Source: an uncultured virus (IMG/VR IMGVR_UViG_3300028840_007129)
Taxonomy: Duplodnaviria; Heunggongvirae; Uroviricota; Caudoviricetes
Virus record (IMG/VR): IMGVR_UViG_3300028840_007129
DNA: 64,000 nucleotides
Strand: one strand, 5' to 3'
Under the pieces are notes generated by a model, which was not told where the DNA came from, did no database searches, and worked only from the letters and a program-made list of their open reading frames with translations. The translations under genes were made by a program, and so were the position numbers. Shown piece by piece: positions 1-51,383 of the stretch (the first letter of the stretch is position 1; every line of letters starts with the position of its first letter).

Positions 1-696
1 AAATGTAAACGGTAAGATCAGAGCTTTAACAAATGACAGTCCTGCAATAACCGCAATTAGTGATATATCATCTGGTATAGGTATTTTAGGTCAATTAAAT
101 GTTGATAGCGCCGGTGTTGCTGTAAGGGGCCAACTCCCTTCTGCTGCTACGGCCGGTGACCTATTCCAGGGTCGTGTTGGTTCTTCTGAATACTTCAGCG
201 TTGATTATACGGGTAGTCTTAGTGCCCGTGCAAATGCAAACGTCACCTCTTATCTTGGTCGCGCTGCAATTGGATATTGTGGTCTCTCAGACTATGCTAG
301 TTTCGCTCATTATGATAAGAATACGACGACTGATTACTCTCTAATGCAGAGCTCCTCCGGAAATACTTATTTGAATGCTTCCACCGGAGCAACGATATAT
401 TTCAGGATTAATAATTCTACTGTAGCCCATTTCAATTCATCCGGTAATCTTGGAATAAGTACGGGCACCGCTCTTTATCCATTACATGTAGAAGGGACCT
501 CCCTGTTAAATGGAACTGTTGGTATAGGTACTACAGATTCTGCTGGATTAAATTTAAATGTAAACGGTAAGATCAGAGCTTTAACAAATGACAGTCCTGC
601 AATAACCGCAATTAGTGATATATCATCTGGTATAGGTATTTTAGGTCAATTAAATGTTGATAGCGCCGGTGTTGCTGTAAGGGGCCAACTCCCTTC
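1..696 (+). repeat. Exact direct repeat of at least 141 bp (1-141 and 556-696), period 555 bp
   Basis: Identical sequence read at both positions; the downstream parts stay similar at protein level (TSYLGRAAIGY). Confidence 0.95.
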
Positions 697-1280
697 ATAC
701 TGGTTCATTAAGATCACGAGCTAATGACGATATCACATCATATCTTGGCAGAGCGGCTATAGGATATAACGGTACATCAGATTTTGCTACATTTTCCCAT
801 TATGATAATAATGATACATCTAGTTATTCTCTAGGCCAGAACACATCTGGCGACACAATGGTTAATGCCGTAACAGGTAGAAGAATATACATAAGAATTA
901 ATAACTCGACAGTTGCAACCTTCTATAATTCTAATTTAGGTATTAATTCAAATACTCCTGCAAGGACTCTTGATGTAGGAGGAGATGTAAGGATAGGTAC
1001 TGACGGTTCTACAATAACCAGTATAAAAATTGTAACCGGTACAACAGCAGCTGCTGCATTTACGGATGTTTCATACCCTTCTGGATGGACCCGCGATAAT
1101 ACTCAGTTTGTTAGTGGAAAAATTCAACAGAATGCAACTTTGGATTGGTGGCCAATATCATGGTATATTAGTAGCTCAGATTATTCAAGGGTCATTTTTA
1201 GATCCGCTAGTATAAGAGTGTACCATCCTGATTCAACTTTTCAGGAGAGGCCATACGAGATCGTTCTCATGCAGGTGTAA
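2..1280 (+). CDS. C-terminal part of a tail fibre / adhesin-like beta-repeat protein, 5'-truncated, with a frameshift at about 697
   Basis: Frame open from 2 to 724; homologous repeat sequence resumes in another frame from 699 to 1280. G/S/T/N-rich with GNLGISTGT, VGIGTT, LGINSNTPARTLDVGGDVRI motifs typical of phage fibres. Confidence 0.7.
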
Positions 1281-3809: not shown

Positions 3810-4400
3810 TCTGAGAAAACCTTATCGATTGCGTATATGGCTTGGTCGGCATAAGTGAATCTTCTTTCCGTATGTTCGAGACTGTCTTCATACGATCTCC
3901 TTTAGCACGTACACGGGCGTGTGATTACAAACGAGAAATAGACTAGGCTTTTCTCCTGGCTAAACGAAAAATCGACCCATCGTTGAACACAAGACTATCG
4001 TCAGTAATCGACTTCACAGTACGACCAATGAATCGAGCATTCGGATTATTAGTCTTATGTTCGCAAGCTTCTTTCTTACGACAAACGTTAGACGCGTAAA
4101 AACGACACGTCGTATCGATATCTGAGATAGCAGTAGTCCAACGTCCTCGTACTGTGCAATAGAACTCTTTCATTTACATTCCTTTCTCTATCTTAGCTCT
4201 ACACCAAGAAACTCAGCTAGGACTACACTAGGAAACGCACCTAGACAAGTGTGCTGACCTACAGGCTGCGTCGAAAAGCTCTTGAATCGTTCGCTTAGCA
4301 TCTCTAGAAGACGTTCCGTAGAAAGACTGCTCGAAAACTTCTCATCTGTCCAATTTTCGATTCGTTGATCACATCGTTAATCAGTGCCTCATGGGCGGTC

Positions 4401-5599: not shown

Positions 5600-6235
5600 C
5601 TAGAACCCATAAATTCTGAAGTCTCCCAGAGTAATAGTGTACTGTTCCTTCTTACCAGTGGCTATATACCTGATAATGACCTCAGTGGCCACGCTGACCG
5701 CCAGAAGTATAACGTTGCGTGCAAGGGGATACTCACAGATATCAGCCCCTTTAGAATCACCATCGAGATGATACTGCTCATTCCATATGGCCTCGGCATA
5801 GTTCTGAAACAGACCCACATGCAGGCAGTCTATACCATTCTTCCGGCAATAATCGGTAACTATGCCTCGACTCTGGGCATTATCGAAGCCATCAACAACA
5901 AGACTGCCCTTGGTAAGCAATGAAGACACCGTCTTCTCAGTTAGCCTCAGCTTCTGGGCCTCTATCTGTACAGACATGTTGTTAAAAACGATGCTCCTCA
6001 GAGCCTGCACCTTAAGCGACCCAACATCCCTCCTCGAATAAATTTGGGTCTGGCGATTGTGGTCCTCAACGCGATCGTCATCTATCACCGTTATCCTGGT
6101 GAAACCCTGACGAACCATGTTATCTATAAGGTTTGACCCTATAGCACCGGCACCGCAAACAACTATGGAATAGGACCCAATCTTCTTCATCAGGTCCTCA
6201 CCACGAAAATTTATCTCGTGTTCAAGCGTCCTCAT
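5600..6235 (-). CDS. ThiF/MoeB/E1-like adenylyltransferase
   Basis: VCGAGAIGS, IDDDRVEDHNRQTQ, DVGSLKV and VVDGFDN motifs; C-terminal ICEYP cysteine. Confidence 0.9.
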   Translation of the reverse strand: MRTLEHEINFRGEDLMKKIGSYSIVVCGAGAIGSNLIDNMVRQGFTRITVIDDDRVEDHNRQTQIYSRRDVGSLKVQALRSIVFNNMSVQIEAQKLRLTEKTVSSLLTKGSLVVDGFDNAQSRGIVTDYCRKNGIDCLHVGLFQNYAEAIWNEQYHLDGDSKGADICEYPLARNVILLAVSVATEVIIRYIATGKKEQYTITLGDFRIYGF

Positions 6236-6500
6236 CAATATCCTCTTCTTCTGAATCATCAGACGAGTCTTTGTTCATATCGCTTTTTTCCAAAATAGAC
6301 CCTGAATTCCCCCAGGCAAGCCTTATCTTACCTCTCCAAGGATATAGGGGACATAAGACACTCGTACATTCACGAGGATGGGATTCAAAGCCCATGCATT
6401 CCGTACACATGGCCTTTATTGCTCGACCACGATTCAACTCAGTCGTAATAGTGCCACCATTGACTGCCCTGATAGTATGCACAGCTTTTTGCATCTTCAT
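6222..6500 (-). CDS. Small Cys-rich putative Zn-binding protein
   Basis: CTECMG...C...CPLYPWR; overlaps both neighbouring genes. Confidence 0.6.
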   Translation of the reverse strand: MKMQKAVHTIRAVNGGTITTELNRGRAIKAMCTECMGFESHPRECTSVLCPLYPWRGKIRLAWGNSGSILEKSDMNKDSSDDSEEEDIDEDA

Positions 6501-7378
6501 GATCCTCTCAAAATATCATTACAGATCTTCGATATAGACCTAAGAGCCCCCTCATACTTGCCCCGATCCACAATAGAACCTTCGAGAGAACCAAAATGCA
6601 AGGTCAGACATTCAAGCAGCAGTGATTTTATGGCCCTATCGTCGGGTACAGCCGGTAAATCGGATTTATGATAAGCCTCTTCCAGATGACGCTCTTTGTC
6701 CCTAAAATACTGCTCCACCCTGCTTAGCTCCCAACCGCCATTACGTATGTCCTTAAGTTGTTCTTTGCTCCTCTGAAGGTCCAGAGTACCCTCAATAAGA
6801 ATCTGCTCCACCTCATTTATAAGCCGGACCAGATTATAGGCATATTTAACGTCGTACCCGAATCTCTCTACAACAGCATCTCTCTTACCTGATGGCTTCT
6901 TGTTGCGAATCTTGTTGAGTTGCTGATAAGCATAACTCTTGAATCTTTGATAGCATCCTTTATGAAGAAAAAGATGCCTGTTCTCCCTGACCAGGTTCCC
7001 AATAGGGCTATATCGGACGATACAGTTATCGGGAACGAATAAGGAATCTATCATATTCGGGTTGTTTTTCATGCAGAGATCGAAAAACTTCACGATAGAG
7101 TAAATCGTGAAATCACAGGGCTTACCGCTCGAAGTATCCTCGAATCCATGCTGCTGGTATGTCTCAAACCCCTTATGGTTCTCACCGAATCCGTGTATGT
7201 ATCCCTTCAAATGAGGGAATATGTCCTCTTTTGAAGGTATGGTGAACCCATAGAAATCATAGTCGCTCTCGTCGGTAGACACCCCATAGCTCTGACTACC
7301 CATAATAACCAGATACTGCGTGTTGTCGATAATCCACTTCGGGCATTTCAGGCTATTGAAAATCCTTGAATGGTTCAT
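6497..7378 (-). CDS. Pol-beta superfamily nucleotidyltransferase, RlaP/YcgL-like (RNA-repair associated)
   Basis: MGSQSYGVSTDESDYD (GS-x-DxD), KNNPNMIDSLF and GYDVKYAYNLVRL motifs. Confidence 0.85.
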   Translation of the reverse strand: MNHSRIFNSLKCPKWIIDNTQYLVIMGSQSYGVSTDESDYDFYGFTIPSKEDIFPHLKGYIHGFGENHKGFETYQQHGFEDTSSGKPCDFTIYSIVKFFDLCMKNNPNMIDSLFVPDNCIVRYSPIGNLVRENRHLFLHKGCYQRFKSYAYQQLNKIRNKKPSGKRDAVVERFGYDVKYAYNLVRLINEVEQILIEGTLDLQRSKEQLKDIRNGGWELSRVEQYFRDKERHLEEAYHKSDLPAVPDDRAIKSLLLECLTLHFGSLEGSIVDRGKYEGALRSISKICNDILRGS

Positions 7379-7737
7379 TTAGAGGTCACCCACCCCATAT
7401 AAAGAGACCTATTGAGGAAAGATGGTATCTTTCTATAACAGATATATTTCCCCTTCCGATAGAATATCCAACAGCTCTGCACCCCTGAACATATCACGCC
7501 ACATATCAAAGGCCTGCCTTCTGCCCTGACCCAGGCCTTCATAGTTGTGATGTCCTCATCACTGAGAAATGGCTCACCAAAAGGATGGGTGTGATAAAAC
7601 CCAAGGACCTTTTTGGAAACGGCTTCGTTCCAATCAAAATTAACTGATGTGGTAGATCCAAACGAATGATACACCCGTTTGCCCAGGAGAAAAGGCCCTA
7701 CTCTTTTTCCTTCAATGAACCAGCATTCCTCAATCAT
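7375..7737 (-). CDS. JAB/MPN (Prok-JAB) metallopeptidase
   Basis: N-terminal Glu plus GFYHTHP...LSDED (HxH-x7-S-xx-D). Confidence 0.85.
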   Translation of the reverse strand: MIEECWFIEGKRVGPFLLGKRVYHSFGSTTSVNFDWNEAVSKKVLGFYHTHPFGEPFLSDEDITTMKAWVRAEGRPLICGVICSGVQSCWIFYRKGKYICYRKIPSFLNRSLYMGWVTSK

Positions 7738-8587
7738 CGTCACCATCCAAGTTGAACACCTCGAAGTAAGCGTTGGTCAGGTGACCCTCTTTCAGAACCG
7801 GGATAAGACTCTTAAGGTCAAAGTTCCTGTCGCCACCACTAAGACATATCCCGGCCGAAAGAACACCGAATCCGTCATTCTTCTGTACGAAAGACGTGTA
7901 TTTGCGGCCATCGACATTATAGGTTACGCTGAAGTGGTCTGACCGCTCCTTATAGGATACAAATTCACCCCCACCATGCTCCACGGCATCTACAAGGCGG
8001 TCTTTTACGGACCGAACTCTTTTCTTTTCCTCCAGCTTCAACTTCATGGCATAAGCTGATTTTTCAGCGAAAGATAGCCCCTTGTATTGGAGTTTATCTA
8101 CTCCAGTCCCTTTTTCGAGCTCCATCCTCAAGTATTCAGTGAGGGTCAGGTCTACTCTGGTGTTCAGGTCATGGAACCATATCCGGCATCCATCAAACCG
8201 ACCAACTATATGGTCGAAAATATCCACGGAATCATTCGGGAGTAGAACCTGATAAACCTCCTGTAAATCGATAGGAACCCTTGTAACGGGCACACCCAAC
8301 CAGTAGTTCCCCTCACGCTGAAAAAGAATGAGATAAACCCTTTGCAGCTTCTTGAGGTAGGAATCGATTTCCCCCATGTGGGCTTCCCGGCTGACGCGGG
8401 CGTTATGGAAATCGAGCGGTTTGAAGCTGTACCAGCCAGGCTTGGTCTGTGGTATTTGGAACTGATAGGTTACACCGCTGAGACGGGTAACTATCTTTCT
8501 GTTGTAGAAGACGGGAGAGATGACCTCCTGATTTGTGAGGTCACTCTCCTTCTTCCCGAGGTTCTCTATCAGATCCAGAATCGACAT
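7730..8587 (-). CDS. Putative E2-like conjugating protein
   Basis: C-terminal beta-rich domain with SAGICLSG cysteine motif; lies between Ubl/TROVE and JAB/E1. E2 call is inferred from context. Confidence 0.5.
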   Translation of the reverse strand: MSILDLIENLGKKESDLTNQEVISPVFYNRKIVTRLSGVTYQFQIPQTKPGWYSFKPLDFHNARVSREAHMGEIDSYLKKLQRVYLILFQREGNYWLGVPVTRVPIDLQEVYQVLLPNDSVDIFDHIVGRFDGCRIWFHDLNTRVDLTLTEYLRMELEKGTGVDKLQYKGLSFAEKSAYAMKLKLEEKKRVRSVKDRLVDAVEHGGGEFVSYKERSDHFSVTYNVDGRKYTSFVQKNDGFGVLSAGICLSGGDRNFDLKSLIPVLKEGHLTNAYFEVFNLDGDDD

Positions 8588-8683: not shown

Positions 8684-10291
8684 TTAGACCTCTGCATACT
8701 CAGCAAAAGGTCTGCGAACCGGGAGAGGTGTGTCCATAATCTCATAGAGCAGGTCGAGTTTGCTGTTCTTGGTCAGAAGAGGCAGCAAACCAGGAAGACC
8801 ATAGTAATCCTTCCCATCCGGCTGATAGGTATCAAACGCAATTTGGCTCTGTCTCAGTCTCATAGAAAGATTTCTGGACTCAGAGCTCGGGATGTACAGA
8901 ATCACCACATTGGGTGTAATTCCCATCTCCTTTTCATAGCGCTTGAAGACATCAGAGAAGAGAGGGCCCTCATTCTCACCCTCATCCGTAATGATGATGA
9001 TCTGCTCCACCCGGATCTTGTCCCTGAGCAACTTCTCAAGGGCACACCCGACGGAGGTCCAGCCGTGAGCCCGGATCCGTGAGAAAGCCGCTTCCCAGTC
9101 AGAAAGATCCTTCCCCTTTGCCCTGACCTCCATGGCCATGTTATCAAAAGCCATGACATAGAGGTCCGACTCCGTTACTCCTGAGACCATGGCTGCCAGA
9201 CGAGTACCTACCTCGATGGCACTGCTCATTGACGAGCTCTTATCGACGAAGATAGCTGTAGGAATCTTGATGACTCCGCGCTTCTTGATTTGCTTATCAG
9301 CTACTTCATCGAGCTTCTTGGCCAGGGTCTCATCCTTGACCTGGGCCTTAGCGGCCTTAGACTTCAGAGCCGTGACCTTGGAGCTCTTAGCGGCCCTAGT
9401 GAGCTTCTTATCAATGAGAGCAGAGATATCCTGGTTCTCCCTGGCACCACGAGCCTCAAGAGATGCCATGTTCGTGATAAGCTCCTGGGAGCTCATGGCA
9501 TTGATGAGCGCTACCATAACCGAGGGGGTCATCTGCTTGATGAGTCCCACGGCAATACGATAGGGTACCTTGTTCTGGACAATGAGCTTAGCCGCATCCT
9601 CAGGGGACTTGGCCTCGATAATCTTCTTGTAGATACCGAGTTTGCTGTCCTCTGGGTACTTCCTCTCGAAGAGCACTTCATTGTGCCTCTCGGGGGGCCT
9701 GCGATGAATGCTGGCATAGAGCCCCTTCAGGGCACGGGCATTGCTCATGACCCTTGAGTCGAATCGATCGTTATCCTCCTCAAGCCACTTCAAGTACTGA
9801 GTAATCTCAGTCTTGAGAGCAGAGGGGATGTTTCGGTCCATACCGACATGGATAAGCTCAATCTTGTGCTTATCGATAATCTTACGGCCCTTCTTGATCT
9901 TCTCGCCGGTCTTGATCCGCTGCTTTACCTTCTTACCCTTGAGGAACCCCTTAATCTTGTCCTTCATGAACAGAGGGCTCTGACGGAACAGTGCGAGGCC
10001 AGTCTCCCGGTTCTCGATAAACGGGTCGTTCAGGAGCATGGCCGTGAACACTTCCTTATGGTCACGGATGTCACCCTTCTTGAAGTACCAACTGGCCAGC
10101 TTTGGATAGAAAGCCGGATCATTGGTCCTCAATACCTCATGAATCTCCTTGACCTTATTCGTGTCTCTGTGGGGGCAGGACATGAATGAGTTGAGGAGCT
10201 GCAGCCGGGTATCCTGTTCCTGACTGGGAGCAGTTGCGGCTGCGGAGGTCTGACTGGTGGTCCTGGTACGGGTGGTCCGAGTCCTGTTCAT
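8684..10291 (-). CDS. Ro60/TROVE-like helical protein with C-terminal vWA domain
   Basis: vWA MIDAS FVDKSSSM, GWTS, IIITDEGEN; helical N-terminus with DPAFYPKLASW; adjacent Y-RNA-like array. Confidence 0.75.
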   Translation of the reverse strand: MNRTRTTRTRTTSQTSAAATAPSQEQDTRLQLLNSFMSCPHRDTNKVKEIHEVLRTNDPAFYPKLASWYFKKGDIRDHKEVFTAMLLNDPFIENRETGLALFRQSPLFMKDKIKGFLKGKKVKQRIKTGEKIKKGRKIIDKHKIELIHVGMDRNIPSALKTEITQYLKWLEEDNDRFDSRVMSNARALKGLYASIHRRPPERHNEVLFERKYPEDSKLGIYKKIIEAKSPEDAAKLIVQNKVPYRIAVGLIKQMTPSVMVALINAMSSQELITNMASLEARGARENQDISALIDKKLTRAAKSSKVTALKSKAAKAQVKDETLAKKLDEVADKQIKKRGVIKIPTAIFVDKSSSMSSAIEVGTRLAAMVSGVTESDLYVMAFDNMAMEVRAKGKDLSDWEAAFSRIRAHGWTSVGCALEKLLRDKIRVEQIIIITDEGENEGPLFSDVFKRYEKEMGITPNVVILYIPSSESRNLSMRLRQSQIAFDTYQPDGKDYYGLPGLLPLLTKNSKLDLLYEIMDTPLPVRRPFAEYAEV

Positions 10292-10398
10292 GGTTTTCTC
10301 TCTTCAGGTTTTAGCACTATGATAGTAGCCCTGCAATCCTGGGTGAGGGTAGGCCCCCTTAAGAACTTTGATAAGTCTTTCGAGGGCACTTTCCCTGC

Positions 10399-10656
10399 TC
10401 ATCCGAACGTGGCTTTCGGACGGACTGTCATGTTCCCGTTGTCGTGGGGTTCCACCACGTAATCAGAAAACTCACCCAGACCGACATCGAAGTACTGGGC
10501 AAGAGCAGTACGAACGATACCGGTTCCGATAGTGGCCGCAGTGGGTGGGACGTTTCCTGGGATACCGAGGGCCTCATACTTCTCCTCGGGAAAGAGGTCC
10601 ACGAACTCGATGTCTTTCGACTCTCCGTTGTACCGAACGTGTACGACACTCATCAT
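10399..10656 (-). CDS. Putative ubiquitin-like (beta-grasp) modifier
   Basis: 85 aa, beta-beta-alpha-beta pattern, ends RPKATFG in Gly; same cluster as E1 and JAB. Confidence 0.6.
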   Translation of the reverse strand: MMSVVHVRYNGESKDIEFVDLFPEEKYEALGIPGNVPPTAATIGTGIVRTALAQYFDVGLGEFSDYVVEPHDNGNMTVRPKATFG

Positions 10657-10725
10657 TTCCTCCCGTGTAGAGGTACAGCTATTTGATGATACTCGGTTCT
10701 TGTTCGTTTATAAAGTTACAGACTC

Positions 10726-10763
10726 AAAAAAGAAGGGGGCCCGGAATCGCTCCGGGCCCCCTT
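10726..10763 (-). terminator. Intrinsic terminator after the ncRNA array
   Basis: 13-bp stem AAGGGGGCCCGGA/TCCGGGCCCCCTT followed on the minus strand by a U-tract. Confidence 0.8.
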
Positions 10764-10777
10764 ATGACTAAGAAAAG

Positions 10778-10868
10778 ACGGTGGAGCAGTGCCTTATAGG
10801 ATAAAGTCTCCTTGCGGCATCAGATTCGTACCGTATGTAATCGCTAATCTTTTCATATACTCCACCGT
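10778..10868 (-). ncRNA. Y-RNA-like unit 1 (minimal)
   Basis: Terminal stem ACGGUGGAG/CUCCACCGU, inner helix UAG(C)GAU/AUCCUA with bulged C, UACAU motif, T-loop-like GGUACGAAUC. Confidence 0.55.
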
Positions 10869-10878
10869 AAGTAAAAAA

Positions 10879-11011
10879 GAGATTGTGCTAGTCGCGGATG
10901 CAGAGTTTGGTACACGAAGATGGGTTTGAACCATCGACTGTCAGGTTAAGAGCCTGATGCCCTACCACTGGGCGATTCGCATGTATGCATCTACAGTTGG
11001 GGCACAATCTC
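10879..11011 (-). ncRNA. Y-RNA-like unit 2 enclosing a full tRNA-Lys
   Basis: Terminal stem GAGAUUGUGC/GCACAAUCUC, inner GAUGCA/UGCAUC, motifs CCAAC, UACAU and GACUA. Confidence 0.75.
10908..10982 (-). tRNA. tRNA-Lys(CUU)-like with encoded CCA
   Basis: Cloverleaf: AUGCGAA/UUCGUGU, D arm GCCC-AGUGGUA-GGGC, anticodon arm UCAGG-CUCUUAA-CCUGA, T arm GAUGG-UUCAAAC-CCAUC, ACCA. Confidence 0.8.
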
Positions 11012-11038
11012 CTTTATTTTGTTTCAGTTACTTATATA

Positions 11039-11205
11039 AGAAAAGGTCACTCTAGTCATCATGCTGTTTTTTACTGAGCTATCCCCCCGCTGGATGCTCT
11101 TTAAAGCACCGAGCGGGGGGATGACGATTTGAACGTCAGACCATCAGTTCCGATAACTGAAGCTCTATCCATGTAAGCATGCGTAGTTAGGGAGTGGCCC
11201 TTTCT
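11039..11205 (-). ncRNA. Y-RNA-like unit 3 enclosing a circularly permuted tRNA-like domain (11073-11170)
   Basis: Terminal and inner stems, UACAU and GACUA; order is 3' D half, anticodon arm, T arm, hairpin-closed acceptor stem, 5' D half. Confidence 0.75.
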
Positions 11206-11220
11206 TGTTCTCTTTTTTAG

Positions 11221-11359
11221 AATGAGGCTGCATTAGTCGATAATGCAGGTTTGGTCGCTAAAGAGGGATTTGAACCCTCGACATTCAACTAGTAAGGTTG
11301 ATGCCCTACCACTGGGCTACTTAGCATGTATGCATCACCCGTTGGGATGCAGCCTCATT
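11221..11359 (-). ncRNA. Y-RNA-like unit 4 enclosing a full tRNA-Val
   Basis: Perfect 13-bp terminal stem AAUGAGGCUGCAU/AUGCAGCCUCAUU; motifs CCAAC, UACAU and GACUA. Confidence 0.75.
11252..11326 (-). tRNA. tRNA-Val(UAC)-like with encoded CCA
   Basis: Cloverleaf: UGCUAAG/UUUAGCG, same D arm as unit 2, UCAAC-CUUACUA-GUUGA, GAGGG-UUCAAAU-CCCUC, ACCA. Confidence 0.8.
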
Positions 11360-11365
11360 GCGCTA

Positions 11366-11394
11366 ATAATATACATTTTGCCGGGCAAAGTCAA
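11366..11394 (-). promoter_or_regulatory. sigma70-like promoter for the ncRNA array
   Basis: TTGACT-N17-TATTAT; predicted start near 11359-11360 coincides with the 5' end of unit 4. Confidence 0.7.
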
Positions 11395-11426
11395 GAAGAA
11401 AATTTCTTTTTTTATAAGATACTGAT

Positions 11427-12326
11427 TTATTTGCTCTTTATAGCTTTGTTCAGGGCTTCCGCTGCATCCATGAGATCTTTTTTATTCATGCTTTGACCTC
11501 TAGGGCTTCCTGCAATACCCCCGTGACCACCGGCTTCTGGTCCCCATAAATCCTGTACAATTTTTTGGCATGATACCCCAGGTATAGGTCTTTCTAATGA
11601 TATGGTTACAGACCCGTGTTTTGTGTTCATGGCGGCAACACCCTTATAGACTTTTTTATCATGGTTATAAAGGTGGTTAACAAACTGGTCAGCCTTTCTA
11701 ACTATTACATCACCTACGATTTTAATGAAGCTGTCTTTCTCTAACTGACTGTTTTGTTTTTTTAAATCCCGGCCTTTTCCGATGAGTTCCGCGTCTTTTG
11801 CTTCTATTTTAGACAGTAACTCTCCAGCCTTCAAAATATCAGATGTTACATCAGATACTTTATCTCGTGGTTTTCTCTCCATAGCTTCTTCTCTAGCCCA
11901 CCATGCATGAATTTTATCGATGTCTTCTTCAGAGAGATTCAAATCATTAAGACGGTGAGGACCATTAACATCTACAAAGCCTGAAATTTCACGGAGTCCA
12001 TCAGATACTAGATTACTCTTTCCTAATAAATCCAGGCATGCAATTATCGTATCTAGATCGAGGTGAGATACCAATATGGTACCCGATGAAAGAGGTGAAG
12101 GTTTAAGGGTTGAAACGGCCGGTTTCCCCTTATATTTACCCGTGTGATGGGCGAGAGTCCTTTCTGTGCCCCCTTTTACTTCTGATCCGTACTCGGCCTC
12201 TACTGTAACCTCAGCATCGATATCTTTTGCCAGATCCCATGTGGGGGCTAGGATCACCTTCACAGATCCGGCTATAAGACCTTTGTACCAGCCTTCAACG
12301 ATATCTCTCTCTGAAATAGTTCTCAT
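11427..12326 (-). CDS. DHH/DHHA1-like phosphoesterase
   Basis: TLAHH, VSHLDLDT and C-terminal AGGHGGIAGSPR motifs. Confidence 0.55.
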   Translation of the reverse strand: MRTISERDIVEGWYKGLIAGSVKVILAPTWDLAKDIDAEVTVEAEYGSEVKGGTERTLAHHTGKYKGKPAVSTLKPSPLSSGTILVSHLDLDTIIACLDLLGKSNLVSDGLREISGFVDVNGPHRLNDLNLSEEDIDKIHAWWAREEAMERKPRDKVSDVTSDILKAGELLSKIEAKDAELIGKGRDLKKQNSQLEKDSFIKIVGDVIVRKADQFVNHLYNHDKKVYKGVAAMNTKHGSVTISLERPIPGVSCQKIVQDLWGPEAGGHGGIAGSPRGQSMNKKDLMDAAEALNKAIKSK

Positions 12327-13596
12327 ACAATTAGACCCTTTTTTAAGGTTTAAAAGTACAAGAGGTATTAATACTTAATTATGTATAACTCCTTAGTTAT
12401 CGACACTTATATTTATCGATACAGCGGTAATGATGAAGGAGGAATTATGGGGTTTTCTCGTATCGTAATGATACTCATCGAATGTTCCTTCTCGGCTCAA
12501 AGCAGACTCTAGCTCTCTCTTCAGTTCGTCCGTCATGTCGATTGTTTCGTACCCTTCGTTATAGCTCGTCTCTTTTTGTAAAAGATATGGTGTGGCTCTC
12601 TACTCCCGCATTCAAGAAGAAAGCCTAAAGGTGTAGCTCAGACCTAGGGACCTCAGTGGTTAATGTGAGGCCGTTTTCAGACACCCTGATGAGAACGGTC
12701 TCTCCTCTATCCTCAAGAACATCCACCCACGAGCTGTGACTGACCGTTATCTCCAGTGATTCATTGCCGCTTTTATATATAGTCCGTGTAAGGGGCTTTC
12801 TTAATCTCATATCTTCTTTTTCCCGTCTATAATAGTATCTTGTATAATGTTATGCTCGTTGATAAACCATGCGTATAACTGTTGAGGGCCAGCATCCCCG
12901 TTCACTAAACATTCCTCAAGCAGGGCAATAGCATCAGGGACATTTGAGGGGCTCAAGAGTCGGACTTGTCGAGCGAGTTCCGATAGCTCAAGAGACGCAT
13001 CCATCCTCATTTCAGCCGCAGCAGCACCTGACAGCCCCTCCAGGCGATCAGAAATTTGAGAAATGGAATCCTGCGTCATTTCTTTCTCCTTGACGACACC
13101 TCTTTGCGGCACTGTTCAAGAAACGCTTTACTTACCTTTGAACTCCGGACCTTTACCAGTTTCAACATGTATACTGCCTCACAATTTGGGCAGTACATCG
13201 CTTTGCTAATCAACCCGCTTGAGACTTCTTCCAAATTATTACCGCAATTCTTACAAGCGGCATCCATTATCGTTGGAACAGCATGAAGACTGAATCCATC
13301 GAAAAGCATAGTTACTCCTCAGGGTATGTATATAAACATCTTCTTTCGATTTAAAGTTGGGAAGCTGTAATCGAGAACTTTCAGCCTAGTAGAACGCCTT
13401 ATTGCACTTTCAATTTGTTCCGGAAGATCCTCTATGATGGCCGTAGGAGCACCCTTTTTGATAGCATCAGCCGTTAAGACAAATACTAGTTCTGTAAATT
13501 TCATTCCACCACTATTATCTAAAACCCGAGCATATGCTAAATCCTCAAGGTTGATTATCTCTGATGGTCCCATGATTGTAGTTCCTTTTGTTTGAA

Positions 13597-14421
13597 TCAA
13601 AGATATCCCTCGTTATCCCTTGCCCATTCCTCTTGTGTAGTCTCTATAGCCTCTGAACCGTCCAAATGACTCAGGTTCGGATTATTGTCTTTTACTATTA
13701 GTTTACTGTCATTGATAATGACGTTTACTCCCCACTGGCCTGCATCCCTGTAATAGTAAGCTCCTTGTTCATTTATCCCGTTTAAAGCCAGGGCTACCCC
13801 AGAAATCGACACATATTTAGGTAGGTTGCGATAGAGGCCCTTGCTGTAGATAAAACCGCGCACATCCGGTAGTATAAGTCCTTCTATGCTTTTTCCAGCT
13901 TCCACCCTACTTCTTATCTCACTGCTTGAAATAGCCATCTGTATAGGGGGATCGAATACTTCTACATTCAGAAATTCGTCACGTGGGTTGCTGTAAGGTG
14001 GCCTCGTAACGAGAATAAAGGAGCACAACTTCTCCAGCTCTCTGTAGTTCACAAATCCCCTGATTTTTGACGCCCAATCCCATCCTATAACCCACTTTAT
14101 CTTTTTATTTGGGTATTTTCTCTTGAAATGGGAGACTGTTTCATATGCACACTCGAACTCATTATCTATATCAGCCATCGATACAGACATACCGGAATAC
14201 TTGAATGTCTTAGAGCACATGTGTGCCCTGTCTTGAGCACTTGTCAGATGCCTGTCTTTCCAAGGAGCCAGATAACTGGGTATCACTACCACCTCATCAG
14301 CTAGGCGCTCAAGTATCTGCCTGGCTACCCATAGATGACCTATATGAGGTGGGTCAAAAGAACCGGCATACAGAGCCATAGTGATGTTTTTAGACTCGAC
14401 AGCTTGGTCCATATTAATCAT
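13597..14421 (-). CDS. nadD: Nicotinate/nicotinamide-nucleotide adenylyltransferase with C-terminal extension
   Basis: YAGSFDPPHIGHL (HIGH), WVIGWD and ISSSEIR motifs. Confidence 0.88.
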   Translation of the reverse strand: MINMDQAVESKNITMALYAGSFDPPHIGHLWVARQILERLADEVVVIPSYLAPWKDRHLTSAQDRAHMCSKTFKYSGMSVSMADIDNEFECAYETVSHFKRKYPNKKIKWVIGWDWASKIRGFVNYRELEKLCSFILVTRPPYSNPRDEFLNVEVFDPPIQMAISSSEIRSRVEAGKSIEGLILPDVRGFIYSKGLYRNLPKYVSISGVALALNGINEQGAYYYRDAGQWGVNVIINDSKLIVKDNNPNLSHLDGSEAIETTQEEWARDNEGYL

Positions 14422-23414: not shown

Positions 23415-26231
23415 CTATGGTATGATTCTATCCCTGGGTATTTCCGCTTTGAACGATACCGAAAATTCTGGTAGTGCCGCTACTTTGTTTAATTTACTGA
23501 GAGCTTTCCATGTTCCCTTATCAAAAGCATATTGAGAGTTCCTGTAAGTTAGAATATATGATTTTCCATGGGGTTTGAGAGACCTCCCCCCATAACATAC
23601 GGCCTCTATTCCGGAACCATCATGCTTAGTTATTCTTGCAAAAAAATTTGATATGAAAGTCATACCCCTTATACTAAGCGGATCATTTTCAGAAGCGACT
23701 ACTGTTACCCACCGCCCTTTAAGGTCCTCTTGATATTTTGACAGTTCAATATACTTTGGTTTAGATATCTTTATTGAGGAAAGATCAGTCAATTCTTTTT
23801 CTATAGCCACCTTATCAACTGCGTCTTTTACTACTTCATTTTCTTTGCTTAATTCACCCCTTGCTATAATATTTTTTAATTCATTCTCTATTTCCTTGAA
23901 TGTGAAATAATCTATTCCTTCTTTTGTTCCAAATATCCTGAAATCTCCCCTGATATATTTCTCGAATACTAGGTCGAATTTTTCTCTAAATTCGTCAAAA
24001 TTGAAATTAGATAGGTCATAAAAACCACTCTCAGATAATGAATCAAAGATGTTTTTTCTCTCATTTCCTAGAAATTGCCTGATGAGCTTATAGTATGAGA
24101 ATTGAGCAAAGTTGCTGAAATATGTTCTATTTATTCTTTTACCGCTACCCCCTATTTCAATACCCCCCTTTATCTTATCGTAGAAATTAGAACCTATTTC
24201 TCTTAGCTCCTTGATGATAATATCCTGATCAGTTATGCCACGCAGTTCTATCTGAGCCGCATATCTTAGAATTTCAGCTTTCAGAGCTGCATAATTTGCA
24301 TCCCCTATGATATTATAAAGGGGCTTGTACTCAGGACGAGCGTGTGACCCTATAATGGGTAATGCAATCGGGATAAAGAGGTCATCCATCATGAGAGATA
24401 CAAGTATGGCATTTACTCGGTCAGAGCATTTTATTCTCAACCCCTTAGTTTCAGACCTGGGAAGATAGCAATGGATATTTATCTCTGTTTTACCTTTATA
24501 TTTTCTTAAAACGCGACCTATCAGCTGACTCATCACTCGTATAGAATTTACTGTTTTTAAAATATGAAGGACGCTGGCCCATGGCCAATCTGTTCCCTCA
24601 TTCATCATGTCCACTGCTATAACTATATCATAAAAATCATCATTTTTCTTATTGAACAGGTCTTTTTTATTGTATTTCTGGTTTTTCCTATCAACGAGGT
24701 CGCAGACCTCTCCAAGGGCACCTATTCTGCTCCTAATGACCTTATAAACCCTATCACCATCAGTTCTTAGTCCTGTATTTGATGGCGGAAATACTATGAT
24801 CTGTTTTCGACCCCTGTACTTTTTTACTTGCTGAGGTATTAATTTTTTAGCATGGTTAACGTTAAAGAATATATAGTCAAAAAAGACCTTCTTTATACCA
24901 AGACTCCTGAAGTGCTCGTGAAAAGGTACATCAAACCTCTCGAAAAGATCATGGTATGTTTTATAATCTACTAGGGGAAGCCAGTCAGTCCTGTATGGCG
25001 TGGCTGTAAATAGATGGACACCAAAACTTTTATCTTTAAATCTTATAGCTTCATCTATGTATCTTCCTATATTAGTCGGCCTTGAGTTATTTTTTTCATC
25101 TTCAACTCCTTGATGGTGGCACTCATCTACATAAATATGAAGATTTTTGCAAATTTTCCGTCTCTCTTCTTTTGAACACCGTTTCCATACTTCTACAAAT
25201 CCAGCATGAGTCGCAGTCGCAGTATTGTGGACTCTCGGTCTACTTAAAAGCCACTTTTTAAGTTCTTCTGCCACATTTCGGCAATCTCTGTCACTAAATC
25301 TTGTTGCCGGTGACCAATTGAGGACCTTACCCTTTAATCGAAATTTAGCGGGTTCGGCATAGAAATAAGTAAGGTGCCCTTGGGGTGCTATGATCAATGA
25401 CTTTTGAGTTTTTTTACGGGAGAGGGTTAGGGCTATTATTAAGACACTCTTGCCCCATCCAGGCGGTGCTACGGTTATAGTATAATTCCTATTAACTGAC
25501 CCATCTAGTATTTCCTTCTGTTTCTTAGTAAGTACAAACTCACCCCTCCTTAAATATGTTGGTTCAAGGAGGTCCCTGTATTTCTCCTTAAAAGTATATT
25601 CGAATGAGGGGGCTGCATCGCTCTCTTCACCTTTTTTCTGAAGAAGGAGCATGCACATTTTAGATCTCTTTTTATATGATTTATATGGGTGGGTTCCAAC
25701 CTCAATAACCTCATTATCTAGGTCCTCAAATGACGCATATTGCTTAGCGAGAGTTTTTATTATTTCCTCTCTTTTCTTTTCTCTTCGATATCTTATGTTC
25801 AAAATGCCATTGATGCAGATAAGAGTTCCCGGAGGAGCCTCCATAATGACAGGTCTTACGGATCGGCCGAGCTCATCGTTATCGACACTGTTTAGGGAAT
25901 CGTAATAAATTATTGCAGGAGGGTATTCATCGACATGTTCACGGAAGGTCGTTCTAAACTCACCCCTGAACCAAGTGGCACTAGAATGAAGCTTTTTATT
26001 AAACTCAATGTTTCGTGGATCCCGATCTACTCCAACAAATTGCTTCTTTTTTATGTATCCCTTGATACACAACTGGTTTATTTCTGAACTCTCCGAATTA
26101 GACTGTTCCCCACATAGAGTCCAGTAATATTGACCCTTTGGAATAAACCTGTTTCCGGTTATTCTGGAATACTCATTGAAAAGCCATTCTCTGGCTTCTA
26201 TCTTCTCTCGGGTCTCGTAACGAGAGCTCAT
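23415..26231 (-). CDS. CRISPR-associated fusion: N-terminal SAM-methyltransferase-like fold plus SF2 (Res/YeeB-like) helicase; no HD nuclease seen
   Basis: Helicase motifs APPGWGKS, VDECHH, TATP, MMNEGTDWP, QLIGRVLR; N-terminal YWTLCG, FVGVDRD, WFRGEF, IIYYDS, PGTLICIN; ATGA overlap with the cas6 stop. Confidence 0.8.
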   Translation of the reverse strand: MSSRYETREKIEAREWLFNEYSRITGNRFIPKGQYYWTLCGEQSNSESSEINQLCIKGYIKKKQFVGVDRDPRNIEFNKKLHSSATWFRGEFRTTFREHVDEYPPAIIYYDSLNSVDNDELGRSVRPVIMEAPPGTLICINGILNIRYRREKKREEIIKTLAKQYASFEDLDNEVIEVGTHPYKSYKKRSKMCMLLLQKKGEESDAAPSFEYTFKEKYRDLLEPTYLRRGEFVLTKKQKEILDGSVNRNYTITVAPPGWGKSVLIIALTLSRKKTQKSLIIAPQGHLTYFYAEPAKFRLKGKVLNWSPATRFSDRDCRNVAEELKKWLLSRPRVHNTATATHAGFVEVWKRCSKEERRKICKNLHIYVDECHHQGVEDEKNNSRPTNIGRYIDEAIRFKDKSFGVHLFTATPYRTDWLPLVDYKTYHDLFERFDVPFHEHFRSLGIKKVFFDYIFFNVNHAKKLIPQQVKKYRGRKQIIVFPPSNTGLRTDGDRVYKVIRSRIGALGEVCDLVDRKNQKYNKKDLFNKKNDDFYDIVIAVDMMNEGTDWPWASVLHILKTVNSIRVMSQLIGRVLRKYKGKTEINIHCYLPRSETKGLRIKCSDRVNAILVSLMMDDLFIPIALPIIGSHARPEYKPLYNIIGDANYAALKAEILRYAAQIELRGITDQDIIIKELREIGSNFYDKIKGGIEIGGSGKRINRTYFSNFAQFSYYKLIRQFLGNERKNIFDSLSESGFYDLSNFNFDEFREKFDLVFEKYIRGDFRIFGTKEGIDYFTFKEIENELKNIIARGELSKENEVVKDAVDKVAIEKELTDLSSIKISKPKYIELSKYQEDLKGRWVTVVASENDPLSIRGMTFISNFFARITKHDGSGIEAVCYGGRSLKPHGKSYILTYRNSQYAFDKGTWKALSKLNKVAALPEFSVSFKAEIPRDRIIP

Positions 26232-26848
26232 AGAGGAGTTATAAGAAGAAGACCGCAACCATAACGTCTTTGACTACCTATACCTCTGAAGATTGAGTTC
26301 AGAAATTGTTCCGCATCAGTTACTATCAGAGTTCCAGTAACTGATACAGTCGTGTATTTGATATCGTCATTATTCTTCTTGTGGTAAAAGGATATATTAT
26401 TGTACTGACCCGTCTGCATTTCAATAACTTCAAATCCGTGTAAGTTCTTTTTTGACTCGAACCATTGCTTTATAGCCTGATAAACCATGACACGCGGGGG
26501 CATCTGTTCTTTAGGAATGCCCTGTTCTCGTAGCCTATTCACGTACTGGGTTACCACATACTCCCTACCTTTTCTGTTCTTTTTCTTATCAGTAGGGTTG
26601 AGGCATATCTGAAAAGAGAAATATCGCCCTTTCGCTATTGCTGGCTGGTATGGTTTGGTTTTTATGAACCATGTCTTACTCTTGAAAATGGGTATGTTCT
26701 CAGATACGACGTATGTGTATGGCGATTCGTAAGCATAGACATACTTAGAATCAGGTATAATCATGCATAATTGGTTTTTGAACCAACCGGGACCGTGGTT
26801 TATTGATAAGTTCCTTTCTTCTTGGAATGTCATCTCACTGAAAAACAT
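26228..26848 (-). CDS. cas6: Cas6e (Cse3) crRNA endoribonuclease
   Basis: FQICLNPT and C-terminal Gly loop GIGSQRRYGCGLL. Confidence 0.9.
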   Translation of the reverse strand: MFFSEMTFQEERNLSINHGPGWFKNQLCMIIPDSKYVYAYESPYTYVVSENIPIFKSKTWFIKTKPYQPAIAKGRYFSFQICLNPTDKKKNRKGREYVVTQYVNRLREQGIPKEQMPPRVMVYQAIKQWFESKKNLHGFEVIEMQTGQYNNISFYHKKNNDDIKYTTVSVTGTLIVTDAEQFLNSIFRGIGSQRRYGCGLLLITPL

Positions 26849-27590
26849 ATACGCCCTCTTTCTCTAGTCTCGGACTGAACATCCTGTGCCCGATAACTAT
26901 ATCATACCGAATATGCTCACGTTTGCAGGTAAAACTGTTATCGGAGCCCTCCCAGAATACGGGCACTTTTCCTTTAACCGGATCATCAGTAATGGGTGAA
27001 TATCCTGAATATGCACGGTTAAGGTTCCGAGCCTCAATGATTTGAGGTTGGGGGGCGCTCTGAAGACAACACTTACGTCCGAGAAAGGGTTGAAATATAG
27101 GATAAAGAATGTGCTCCATCAGGTATTCAAGCTTCACCTTTTTGGATAGGCTCCAAATACAGGCCGTAAAAGAAGCCCCACAGAGATACTCCCTCTCTCC
27201 AATGATGGTATTAGACCTGCTCAGGTCTGTGTGTTTCTCGAATAAGTGATTGAGAGCCAGACGATCTTCCGGCCGCACGTTGAGGGCGGCATGGAAGTAT
27301 CTATTAGGCAATCCATTATCCTGGATATACTTGGAAGTATCCCGATGGAGTAACCCAACCGACTGAAAATCTACAATCTTTGTGCCGGGTCTATTTACAC
27401 GACATGAGAACCCTATAAGGCTGCAGAGTCCCTTAAGATGCTCAGCCTCGGTTAGGCCCAGACAAGCTCCCAGATACCCCACCACTCCGCTTTTGGTTGG
27501 CCTGGACTCCACAGCACGGTTATCGTTTGCTAGGGGGGACCCCCATGCTTGGAAAAGCCCCTCTAGTCCGAATAGGAGGTATTGGCCCAT
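26835..27590 (-). CDS. cas5: Cas5e (CasD)
   Basis: LLFGLEGLFQAWG...RPTKSGVVGYLGACLG, REYL and FLGRKCC motifs. Confidence 0.92.
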   Translation of the reverse strand: MGQYLLFGLEGLFQAWGSPLANDNRAVESRPTKSGVVGYLGACLGLTEAEHLKGLCSLIGFSCRVNRPGTKIVDFQSVGLLHRDTSKYIQDNGLPNRYFHAALNVRPEDRLALNHLFEKHTDLSRSNTIIGEREYLCGASFTACIWSLSKKVKLEYLMEHILYPIFQPFLGRKCCLQSAPQPQIIEARNLNRAYSGYSPITDDPVKGKVPVFWEGSDNSFTCKREHIRYDIVIGHRMFSPRLEKEGVYVFQ

Positions 27591-27592
27591 AA

Positions 27593-50448: not shown

Positions 50449-51375
50449 CTACATTTCTTGCACTTCTGGTTGCTTAGATAAGTGCATAACCTCTATTAAA
50501 GGCTTTTTCGATGCTTCTTCGCCCCTCTGAACATAAAAGGGCACGTACTTCAGCAGGTCCATGCCTCTGTATTTCTCAGGAATAGCCATGTCCCAGTACC
50601 TAAAAGAAACATCGTCACGGTGCCGGGCTATGCTATCCATCATCTTAACCTGATCACTGCGACGTTGGGTCCTGGCCAACCCACCGTCTGATGGTTTCAT
50701 GTAAGCCATAATCTGCTTTATAGTGAGCCATCGGCTCACTTCCTTATAGGTTTTCTTCTCAATGGGGAAAGTACAACCATAGGCGTCAAAAAGCAGGGGT
50801 TCCTGACCGTACCAGTTAAGTATCTCAGTTTCTGCCTTAGCCTGTTCGATCGGAAAGTTCTGAGTACCTATACCCCCGTCGGAGTAGACCATCTGATTTT
50901 TCGGGTCATCAAGCTCGCCGAAGTAGAATGGAGCGGCAAAACTTCGACATATACAGTCTACTACTTTCTCGTTCTCGACCTCGGGTTTCCATGATTTGAA
51001 GAAAACATTCTCCTCAGATACCAGGTCAGTTGCTACTATCATCAGCTTGGTTTTGCACTGACCCATCCTGAAATCTTCTCCAACATACTCGTCCCAGATG
51101 TCCCTGAAATTGTCCCGGTCGAATTTCGGGGGACCGAATCCTCTGCGCTTCTTAAAGGCATTCTTAAGGAATCTCGGGTAGTCCTTTTTAAGATCGGCCA
51201 TTTTCATGGCTCCTGTAGCTGCCATGCCAAGGTTGATGGAAGCCACGGAAGCCCCTACCACCAAGCTATAATATTCATGAAGAGGCTTTTTTTCACGTTC
51301 TTCAGCTTCAGCCAATAGCTGGATCTGAAATGCACCCATTGCACCACCACCGGAACCGATTGCCACTGCCTTCAT
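50449..51375 (-). CDS. Patatin-like phospholipase
   Basis: GSGGGAMG, GASVA nucleophile elbow, SFAAPFYF and DGG motifs. Confidence 0.88.
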   Translation of the reverse strand: MKAVAIGSGGGAMGAFQIQLLAEAEEREKKPLHEYYSLVVGASVASINLGMAATGAMKMADLKKDYPRFLKNAFKKRRGFGPPKFDRDNFRDIWDEYVGEDFRMGQCKTKLMIVATDLVSEENVFFKSWKPEVENEKVVDCICRSFAAPFYFGELDDPKNQMVYSDGGIGTQNFPIEQAKAETEILNWYGQEPLLFDAYGCTFPIEKKTYKEVSRWLTIKQIMAYMKPSDGGLARTQRRSDQVKMMDSIARHRDDVSFRYWDMAIPEKYRGMDLLKYVPFYVQRGEEASKKPLIEVMHLSKQPEVQEM

Positions 51376-51383
51376 AAGAGACC

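Follow-up and report, generated by a model that had tools for sequence, protein, structure and literature searches.

The 64-kb window analysed here is the whole stretch of DNA from an uncultured virus of the Caudoviricetes (IMG/VR record IMGVR_UViG_3300028840_007129) and resembles part of a huge phage, with nearly all open reading frames (ORFs) on the minus strand and few family matches. It carries an array of four stem-enclosed RNA units next to a gene for a protein taken to be a divergent Ro60, and the second of these units contains a tRNA-like module whose arms are circularly permuted at the D-loop. Positions throughout are window coordinates, and the units and the module are read on the minus strand (Table 1).

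Table 1. Features of the array, of the permuted module and of other genes in the 64-kb window.
Feature	Position	Strand	Basis or remark
Sigma-70-like promoter, TTGACT, 17 nt, TATTAT, ahead of the array	11366..11394	-	10/12 consensus matches only
Unit 1, scaffold stem around native-order tRNA-Val(UAC) 11326-11252 with encoded CCA	11223..11357	-	ARAGORN, Rfam 62.6 bits
Unit 2, Y-RNA-like unit with permuted module	11042..11202	-	Folding, covariance model
Unit 2, outer stem, 11 pairs	11202-11192 with 11052-11042	-	
Unit 2, 5' loop CCUAAC	11191-11186	-	
Unit 2, inner stem, 6 pairs	11181-11176 with 11065-11060	-	
Unit 2, UACA	11175-11172	-	
Unit 2, 3' loop GACUA	11057-11053	-	
tRNA-like module permuted at the D-loop	11073..11170	-	Break between nominal positions 16 and 18
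Module, D 3' half GGAUAGAGC	11170-11162	-	Read from sequence
Module, U26	11161	-	
Module, anticodon arm UCAGU-UAUCGGA-ACUGA	11160-11144	-	Nominal loop UAUCGGA 11155-11149, A at position 33
Module, variable loop UGGUC, 5 nt	11143-11139	-	
Module, T arm UGACG-UUCAAAU-CGUCA	11138-11122	-	
Module, acceptor 3' strand UCCCCCC	11121-11115	-	
Module, linker hairpin closing the acceptor, 26 nt	11114-11089	-	Length verified
Module, acceptor 5' strand GGGGGGA	11088-11082	-	
Module, U8-A9, D-stem 5' strand and D-loop start, UAGCUCAGU	11081-11073	-	
Unit 3, scaffold around native-order tRNA-Lys(CUU) 10982-10908 with encoded CCA	10878..11012	-	ARAGORN, Rfam 61.5 bits
Unit 4, 9-bp stem 10868-10860/10786-10778 enclosing ~70 nt, no tRNA-like part, no GACUA	10778..10868	-	
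Intrinsic-terminator-like hairpin (10763-10733) and T run, closing the array	10724..10763	-	14 pairs, 10 of them G-C
85-aa ORF between array and putative Ro60 gene	10399..10656	-	Kept at this place in relatives
Putative divergent Ro60/Rsr ORF, 535 aa, TROVE ring and vWA	8684..10291	-	Weak profiles, AF2 model/Foldseek
285-aa ORF after putative Ro60 gene	7730..8587	-	Present in 12/15 related loci
JAB-peptidase gene	7375-7746	-	
RlaP-type nucleotidyltransferase	6497-7378	-	
ThiF/E1-like gene	5600-6259	-	
299-aa gene upstream of the array	11427-12326	-	
Nicotinate/nicotinamide mononucleotide adenylyltransferase-like gene	13597-14421	-	
Type I-E-like Cascade set	23415-30747	-	
Patatin-like phospholipase	50449-51402	-	
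Solute-binding domain fused to potassium-channel-like pore	51384-52418	-	
Acb2/Tad1 hairpin-domain protein	52505-53062	-	

The array and its permuted tRNA-like module

The four units lie in one promoter-to-terminator stretch (11394-10724), in which the promoter-like and terminator-like sites flank ~640 nucleotides (nt) without ORFs. This ORF-free stretch has a folding z-score of -8.6 relative to 20 shuffles, and a 171-nt stretch covering unit 2 has one of -7.3 relative to 200 shuffles. Units 1-3 share a common design: an outer stem of ~11 pairs is followed by a 5' loop, the 5' strand of an inner stem, the sequence GC-N-UACA and then the cargo, while on the 3' side an A-rich joint after the cargo leads into the second inner-stem strand and a GACUA that abuts the outer stem. 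The 5' loop reads CCCAAC in units 1 and 3 and CCUAAC in unit 2, with Y-Y-N-A-M as the consensus over units. With its 11-pair outer and 6-pair inner helices, unit 2 has the long end-to-end stem with internal loop that is expected of a Y RNA. ARAGORN and Rfam find only two tRNAs in the window, those of units 1 and 3, and a search of the array for ribozymes and other Rfam families returned nothing credible at E values up to 10.

Read from 5' to 3', the module of unit 2 passes from the D 3' half through the anticodon arm, variable loop, T arm, acceptor 3' strand and linker to the acceptor 5' strand and the D 5' half. Every arm element named in the original prediction, which was made from the sequence without database searches, was found on the minus strand where it had been placed. 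In this native order the module is called by neither ARAGORN nor Rfam, and it has neither the arm order nor the free acceptor ends of a tRNA. Its 3' half lies ahead of its 5' half, as in permuted tRNA genes, and re-joining it in silico at the D-loop, a check that the original prediction had proposed, yields a 75-nt tRNA-Arg(tcg) at the default threshold of ARAGORN. At a relaxed threshold, 20 of 72 junction variants are called, namely all those with three or fewer extra junction nucleotides. ARAGORN calls none of 300 shuffled cores, and among 25,562 constructs cut with the same geometry from both strands of the window it calls one, the construct that starts at 11170. In a 58-nt search of 11170-11113 alone, the Rfam tRNA model matches 11170-11114 over model positions 17-71, as a tRNA truncated at its 5' end, with 23.8 bits (E 0.0015), below its gathering score of 29.

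Because the chain is broken between nominal positions 16 and 18, the module retains both the D-loop GG and the T-loop UUCAAAU, the nucleotides of the tRNA elbow. At the other end of the fold, the acceptor helix runs uninterrupted for three further pairs into the linker, which folds as a perfect extension of that helix, and no CCA is encoded. The junction with the scaffold is an internal loop of ~10 nt per strand above the 6-pair stem, and inspection of the fold revealed no bulge-helix-bulge of the 3-4-3 type there. Unit 2 presents the T arm, the D-arm elements and the closed acceptor of a Y RNA tRNA-like domain, and shows none of the features that define YrlA proper, namely the anticodon-stem joint, the missing anticodon loop and a match to the Rfam model RF02553.

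Conservation in relatives and linkage to the putative Ro60 gene

Close relatives of the array were found in contigs of three other studies (X4, X6 and X8, of which X4 and X6 are the same 931-nt record). Across units 1 and 2 they are ~93% alike and preserve the permuted order; most of the changes in unit 2 keep or improve the fold. The C x A mismatch of the outer stem becomes a U-A pair, CCUAAC becomes the CCCAAC seen in units 1 and 3, an A-U pair of the anticodon stem becomes G-U, and two changes in the linker hairpin both fall in its loop; one change found in X8 only disrupts a linker pair. Five consecutive changes convert the anticodon loop of unit 2 from UAUCGGA to UGCAUAA, the loop of unit 1 is altered too, and ARAGORN calls the re-joined unit 2 of these relatives as tRNA-Met(cat). 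Changed positions number 7 (X4) or 8 (X8) of 14 in the two anticodon loops and 16 or 19 of 345 elsewhere (Fisher p ~4e-6 for X4 and 8e-7 for X8, values that overstate the independence of the changes because adjacent ones may be single events and the relatives share ancestry). The region of unit 3 (10866-11037) is replaced by 87 other letters in X4/X6 and rearranged in X8, with units 1, 2 and part of 4 staying in place; the units seem to be exchanged as cassettes.

A Ro60-fold ORF lies ~430 nt downstream of the array terminator, an adjacency of the kind seen between Y RNA and Ro60 genes. The encoded 535-aa protein is taken to be a divergent Ro60 because several weaker profile and fold lines agree. 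The ORF has a weak match to the NCBIfam Rsr model (E 0.007), and the best PDB sequence matches of a 42-member family profile are two TROVE chains, both co-linear with it (E 0.078). Pfam matches among the 42 members are to vWA_Ro60 (12/42) and VWA_2 (37/42), and the DxSxS motif of the vWA metal site is invariant across the family, which comprises 755 proteins at E <=0.001 among 8000 candidates scored, on contigs of up to ~512 kb. The AlphaFold (AF2) model of the protein has a mean pLDDT of 81.5, and its top 12 Foldseek matches in the PDB are all Ro60, Rsr or TROVE structures aligned over nearly the full chain (E 1.5e-11 to 8e-9, TM 0.53-0.66). The Ro60 of Thermus phage phiLo is among these 12, and plain vWA domains rank below them.

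A Ro60-profile search of viral contigs yielded 15 huge-phage loci (L083-L097) whose Ro60 proteins are 32-55% identical to that of the window; in the part examined, L084/L085 and L087/L088 are duplicates. At the nucleotide level, blastn found no DNA similar to the array in phage records, and neither the motif pattern of units 1 and 3 nor the scaffold pattern had a match in viral contigs. Two matches of the scaffold pattern in genome contigs were rejected as chance, being coding-like sequence with no stems and no tRNA. All 15 loci have an ORF-free gap of at least 150 nt within 2.5 kb upstream of the Ro60 gene, and folding of these gaps gives the same unit design as in the window. The 15 loci contain 26 Rfam tRNA matches, of which 25 lie in the upstream part, and two of the 26 cover model positions 7-64 only and thus lack the acceptor stem.

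A covariance search had also been proposed with the original prediction. A covariance model built on unit 2 of the window alone, with a hand-written structure, found full-length homologues (model 1-161) in five further distinct loci: L083 (93.6 bits), L091 (84.0 bits), L087 and its duplicate L088 (71.4 bits), L096 (36.1 bits) and L089 (35.2 bits). Over the six distinct sequences, 96.1% of paired cells hold a pair, against 41-49% when partners are slid by 1-3 columns; changes on both sides occur in 34 of 48 pairs, and none of 500 shuffles reaches any of five covariation measures. Compensatory changes are found in every helix, with covarying pairs numbering 9/11 in the outer stem, 3/6 in the inner stem, 2/4 in the D stem, 4/5 in the anticodon stem, 4/5 in the T stem and 12/17 in the acceptor with its linker. 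The GG just past the UACA region and a UUCNANN T-loop are kept in all six units, and ARAGORN calls the re-joined form of two of them (window and L083). Together with the re-joined call in the window, this covariation supports the predicted cloverleaf that is entered through the D-loop and closed at its acceptor end. Two parts of the fold are less constant. L087 and L091 have a poorly formed D stem, and the nominal anticodon loop is conserved in neither sequence nor length, having other lengths in L091 and L096; the U33 and 7-nt anticodon loop expected of a tRNA are thus not kept in homologues, with A33 in the window and G33 in close relatives.

The scaffold itself is more widespread than this one class of cargo. 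A motif-and-stem search gave 58 candidates, from which 8 with the outer stem more than 31 nt from UACA, 2 chance matches (L083 1293 and L086 minus 1517) and 7 duplicate rows were dropped; 41 distinct units remained, spread over the window and 13 distinct loci. Scaffold units occur within 2.6 kb upstream of the Ro60 clade genes in 14 of 15 loci, L093 having none. Two features that were not search criteria, an outer-stem-to-UACA spacing of 14-16 nt and a C two bases ahead of UACA, are each present in 40 of the 41 distinct units. Strict units, for which both features were required, number 43 in the 78 kb upstream of Ro60 genes, 2 in the remaining 112 kb of the Ro60 loci and 1 in 650 kb from 79 unrelated huge-phage loci (L002-L080), a distribution that ties the shared scaffold to the Ro60 gene. 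Scaffold units that adjoin a divergent Ro60 gene are therefore candidate Y RNAs, a connection that the original prediction had missed. The single strict match among the control loci (L048, ~4078-4253, plus strand) could be a genuine unit, its locus having been retrieved on account of another gene. Divergent orientation of the array is also possible: in L090 (~1100-2030) its units and the Ro60 gene are on opposite strands. In L089 a HEARO RNA (645-830, plus strand, 90.2 bits) stands immediately upstream of the array.

Up to six units were detected per locus, with cargo topologies mixed. The cargo of the 41 units was classified with ARAGORN (native and doubled, trimmed sequences), Rfam and the covariance model. 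Native-order tRNAs with the acceptor end toward the scaffold, most with N73-CCA and an A-rich tail, fill 17 units, and in 3 others a tRNA body has its acceptor stem replaced by the scaffold. The D-loop entry of unit 2 is found in 6 units. In another 8 the scaffold joins at the variable region, so that the order is T arm, closed acceptor, D arm and anticodon arm, and several of these carry class II D-loops, which suggests that the scaffold sits in place of a long variable arm. One unit is entered from the anticodon side (L096 1980-2079); it matches the Rfam YrlA model over positions 1-114 with 36.4 bits (E 0.00023), under the gathering score of 69, and the classic YrlA layout would therefore share the scaffold with the new layouts. 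No tRNA-like cargo was called in the remaining 6, and unit 4 of the window, without GACUA, stands outside the 41. That tRNA-like cargo is grafted onto one scaffold in several ways, as originally proposed for the array, is thus seen in the window and in its relatives alike. An anticodon arm with the loop CUAUUAA (nominal AUU) recurs across topologies, in native order in L091 1487-1603 and L096 1639-1752 and with variable-region entry in L089 1560-1681. An A34 anticodon such as this nominal AUU is unusual for bacteria, and other cargo anticodons are odd too (AAU, UCA and loops called '???').

Neighbouring genes and wider context

In the related loci a gene order recurs in which the array is followed by the 85-aa ORF, Ro60, the 285-aa ORF, a JAB gene and a ThiF-like E1 gene. 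Over the 15 loci the 85-aa ORF is present in 11, the 285-aa ORF in 12, JAB in 9 and ThiF in 5, and absences may simply be a matter of range because the fetched flanks stop ~2.5 kb downstream. The 85-aa ORF has weak structural look-alikes among ubiquitin-like folds (Prok_Ub, Ufm1), a lead only, and a glycine at or near its end is invariant in 10/10 sequences. A mature ubiquitin-like protein ending in that glycine was considered and rejected, the frame continuing beyond it in 7 of 9 relatives. The model of the 285-aa protein (pLDDT 85.6) has weak, low-TM matches to OB, S1 and cold-shock-type domains (RNase II/R, exosome caps, protein S1), the best with E 8.8e-4 and TM 0.17, and its profile gave nothing useful against PDB sequences. 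From the recurrence of this gene order in relatives, Ro60 may be associated with a set of genes for ubiquitin-like conjugation or a sulfur carrier. For the RlaP-type nucleotidyltransferase, also located after the putative Ro60 gene in the window, the fetched flanks of the 15 related loci contain no counterpart.

On the other side of the array, the 299-aa protein belongs to a large family (698 hits) with no Pfam match and with invariant AHH, SHxDLD and GGH motifs, which we take to resemble those of DHH-type phosphoesterases; no relatives of it were found in viral contigs. A link between this gene and the array was rejected: its closest fetched relatives (L002 and L003) have no array downstream, and only L021 and L031 among the 79 loci L002-L080 have a tRNA just downstream of the family gene.

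Elsewhere in the window, the Cascade set consists of Cse1-, Cas7(CT1975)-, Cas5- and Cas6e-like genes after a 947-aa helicase-like ORF, and further family matches are to helicases. The Acb2/Tad1 protein, of the cyclic-nucleotide sponge family, the adenylyltransferase-like gene and the RlaP-type gene give the neighbourhood a counter-defence and RNA-repair flavour. The solute-binding domain fused to a potassium-channel-like pore has a glutamate-receptor-like layout and adjoins the patatin-like phospholipase gene.

Interpretation and comparison with known systems

Y RNAs adjoin Ro60 genes in bacteria and phages and carry tRNA-like domains (Chen 2014, PMC4201824). Their traits include a basal stem bound by Ro60 and a gene adjoining that of Ro60, and the YrlA class adds a tRNA-like head with a closed acceptor (PMC4201824; Wang 2018, 10.1101/312249). 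In phage phiLo, the Ro60 protein binds a pair of Y-like RNAs whose genes lie upstream of its own (PMC12135203). Against this background, unit 2 is probably a Y-RNA-like non-coding RNA, a new topological variant that would partner the divergent Ro60 of a huge phage.

Several points weigh against this reading. The 535-aa ORF has no sequence match at any curated threshold, and its assignment as Ro60 comes from the fold and from weak profiles. The alignment used for covariation was fitted to the model structure and holds only six distinct sequences, and in the unit census UACA and ACU are invariant by construction. No match to the Rfam YrlA model (RF02553) appears over 9000-14000 at E values up to 10, and the published bacterial Ro60-binding motif (GNCGAAN0-1G, or CGAA; PMC4201824, PMC12135203) is not matched in letter by the CCUAAC of unit 2; possibly, a divergent 5'-loop motif is matched to a divergent Ro60. 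Minus-strand transcription and the ends of the units are predictions from sequence. Finally, the cargo of units 1 and 3 looks like ordinary tRNA with its CCA encoded, and the scaffold could therefore be mainly a processing stem and not a protein-binding module.

Taken to its full extent, this last point becomes an alternative in which the stems only mark sites for a processing enzyme, such as RNase III or a phage endonuclease, that would free tRNAs from a polycistronic transcript; Ro60 would then be coincidental or act on other RNAs, and unit 2 would be a by-product of rearrangement kept by chance. We regard this as unlikely. The 17 of 41 distinct units with native-order tRNAs agree with it, and a scaffold of two helices with an internal loop presumably resembles phage RNase III sites. 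However, a chance by-product would not be expected to be kept with compensatory changes in six distinct loci with Ro60 proteins that share only 32-55% identity with that of the window, and a scaffold for releasing tRNAs would not be expected to carry eight variable-region-entry, one YrlA-like and six non-tRNA-like units as well. The strong tie of the scaffold to the Ro60 gene and the conserved order of array, 85-aa ORF, Ro60 and 285-aa ORF likewise argue against coincidence.

Even less probable, and in our view very much so, is a true permuted tRNA gene, in which cutting of the stem and ligation of the D-loop ends would give a circle, whose acceptor hairpin RNase P and a 3' nuclease would open before the addition of CCA completed a working tRNA-Arg(UCG). 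The re-joined sequence is a tRNA at ARAGORN defaults, units 1 and 3 on the same scaffold resemble normal tRNAs, and unit 2 has A20 and C35/G36, which we take to be arginine identity elements. The 7-pair acceptor stem also has the length that permits RNase P cutting and CCA addition in the YrlA of M. smegmatis (PMC4201824), and processing of this kind has been raised as a possibility for YrlA (Wang 2018, 10.1101/312249). Unit 2 itself departs from such a gene at many points: position 33 is A in the window and G in two close relatives, the anticodon loops of homologues vary, the D stem is degenerate in L087 and L091, no CCA is encoded, the acceptor helix is continuous into the linker, and the flanks show no bulge-helix-bulge on inspection. 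Among 88 non-nested window ORFs of at least 85 aa there is no RNA ligase, polynucleotide kinase or CCA-adding enzyme family, although a ligase could be encoded elsewhere in the genome or by the host. The anticodon, moreover, switches from UCG to CAU in close relatives on an unchanged body, which is a poor fit to a fixed amino-acid identity. An assembly artefact, or a functionless remnant of a tandem tRNA duplication, can practically be dismissed: although tandem duplicates are the presumed origin of permuted tRNA genes (Wang 2018, discussion) and the window comes from a metagenome assembly, the whole stretch is present in two runs, both possible sources, the permuted order is intact in the ~93%-alike versions from other studies, five other loci keep all helices through compensatory changes, and the linker perfectly extends the acceptor helix.

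If unit 2 is a Y-RNA-like partner of Ro60, the following mechanism can be proposed. The basal stem of each unit is formed from its own 5' and 3' ends, and the conserved internal loop, with CCYAAC on the 5' side, GACUA on the 3' side, the inner stem and GC-N-UACA at fixed spacing, would serve as the Ro60-binding module. At the apex, a complete tRNA-shaped fold is joined to the scaffold through the opened D-loop, with the anticodon arm displayed and the acceptor closed and extended by a hairpin. While Ro60 holds the stem, the head may engage tRNA-recognising proteins. It could act as bait or inhibitor for host anticodon nucleases or other tRNA-targeting factors, or as a tether for RNA-processing or repair enzymes, by analogy with the Y RNAs that tether Ro60 to PNPase in Deinococcus. 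Contact of Ro60 with CCYAAC, GACUA and UACA, the binding partners and the biological role are inferred, whereas the fold with its conservation and covariation, the adjacency to Ro60 and the shared scaffold are observed in the array and its relatives.

A bait or inhibitor would fit the variable anticodon loops, the absence of U33, the closure of the acceptor and the counter-defence character of neighbouring genes, and a tether for RNA-processing enzymes may fit as well. For a nuclease decoy in particular, the one fitting observation is the concentration of changes in the anticodon loops between close relatives. The original prediction had reasoned that this topology cannot be charged. As a rule this is too strong, since in vivo RNase P cuts the YrlA of M. 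smegmatis, which has a closed acceptor stem of 7 bp, and CCA is added to it (PMC4201824); in its favour, the three-pair extension of the acceptor helix into the linker would make RNase P cutting less likely. A bolder and rather doubtful proposal is that the array forms a counter-defence rack of tRNA look-alikes on a phage Ro60, in which real tRNAs stand beside sealed mimics unusable for charging or by the ribosome. Their anticodon loops would be tuned, and quickly re-tuned, to host tRNA-cutting nucleases, which would be soaked up, or damaged RNA would be passed on to degradation or repair, possibly under the control of the ubiquitin-like, E1 and JAB proteins. If so, entry through the D-loop and through the variable arm would be alternative displays of an intact anticodon arm, which classic YrlA cannot offer.

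The tRNA-like part of known tRNA-mimicking Y RNAs has no anticodon arm and no known binding partners. What is new here are arrays beside a widespread clade of huge-phage Ro60 genes that combine scaffolded tRNAs with mimics of at least three other layouts, and in two of these layouts the whole anticodon arm is on display; among these, the D-loop-entry class is a conserved and previously unremarked member of a Ro60-linked RNA family. The published full texts searched, which did not extend to the supplements of Chen 2014 with their phage YrlA candidates, describe no tRNA mimics entered through the D-loop or variable arm, no arrays of scaffolded tRNAs beside a phage Ro60 and no such Ro60 clade. 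The concentration of changes in the anticodon loops offers a testable handle on the purpose of the tRNA-like head of Y RNAs, and the finding would link Ro60 to phage-host conflicts over tRNA. The units also offer design models from nature for attaching a folded tRNA to a carrier stem.

The permuted tRNA genes of some algae and one archaeon give working tRNAs through a circular intermediate, made by a splicing endonuclease and a ligase. Those of Cyanidioschyzon merolae, some green algae and Thermofilum (cited in Wang 2018, 10.1101/312249) resemble unit 2 in that the 3' part of the tRNA precedes the 5' part and an intervening stretch bridges the acceptor ends. They differ in that the anticodon loop of unit 2 is non-canonical and variable and its flanks are a conserved, Ro60-linked scaffold; in the published literature searched, permuted tRNA genes have not been reported from bacteria or phages.

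Closer counterparts are found among Y RNAs. YrlA (RF02553), known from bacteria and some phages, shares with unit 2 a gene adjoining Ro60, an end-to-end basal stem and an apical tRNA mimic with T arm, D-arm elements and closed acceptor, and has already been described as resembling a circularly permuted tRNA (PMC4201824, 10.1101/312249). The statement in the original prediction that YrlA connects through the anticodon stem agrees with these papers. Whereas YrlA has this anticodon-stem joint and no anticodon loop, unit 2 is joined at the D-loop and keeps a full anticodon arm; it carries CCYAAC in place of the GNCGAA motif, is not matched by the YrlA model and belongs to arrays of mixed cargo. 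The Thermus phage phiLo system likewise combines a phage Ro60 with upstream Y-like RNAs (Yrl1 and Yrl2) of stem-bulge-stem build, but these RNAs were chosen by their CGAA motif and are not described in the accessible portion of that paper as carrying tRNA folds (PMC12135203). The 535-aa protein of the window has, furthermore, diverged too far from the phiLo Ro60 for a sequence match (none at E 10). For the Y RNA Yrn1 of Deinococcus radiodurans, a drawing with a T arm and an anticodon-like arm is possible (PMC4201824), and Y RNAs therefore use more than one tRNA-like layout. Yrn1 has a loop of 6 nt and lacks both a variable arm and a clear D arm, whereas in unit 2 all four arms are present and the elbow nucleotides are canonical.

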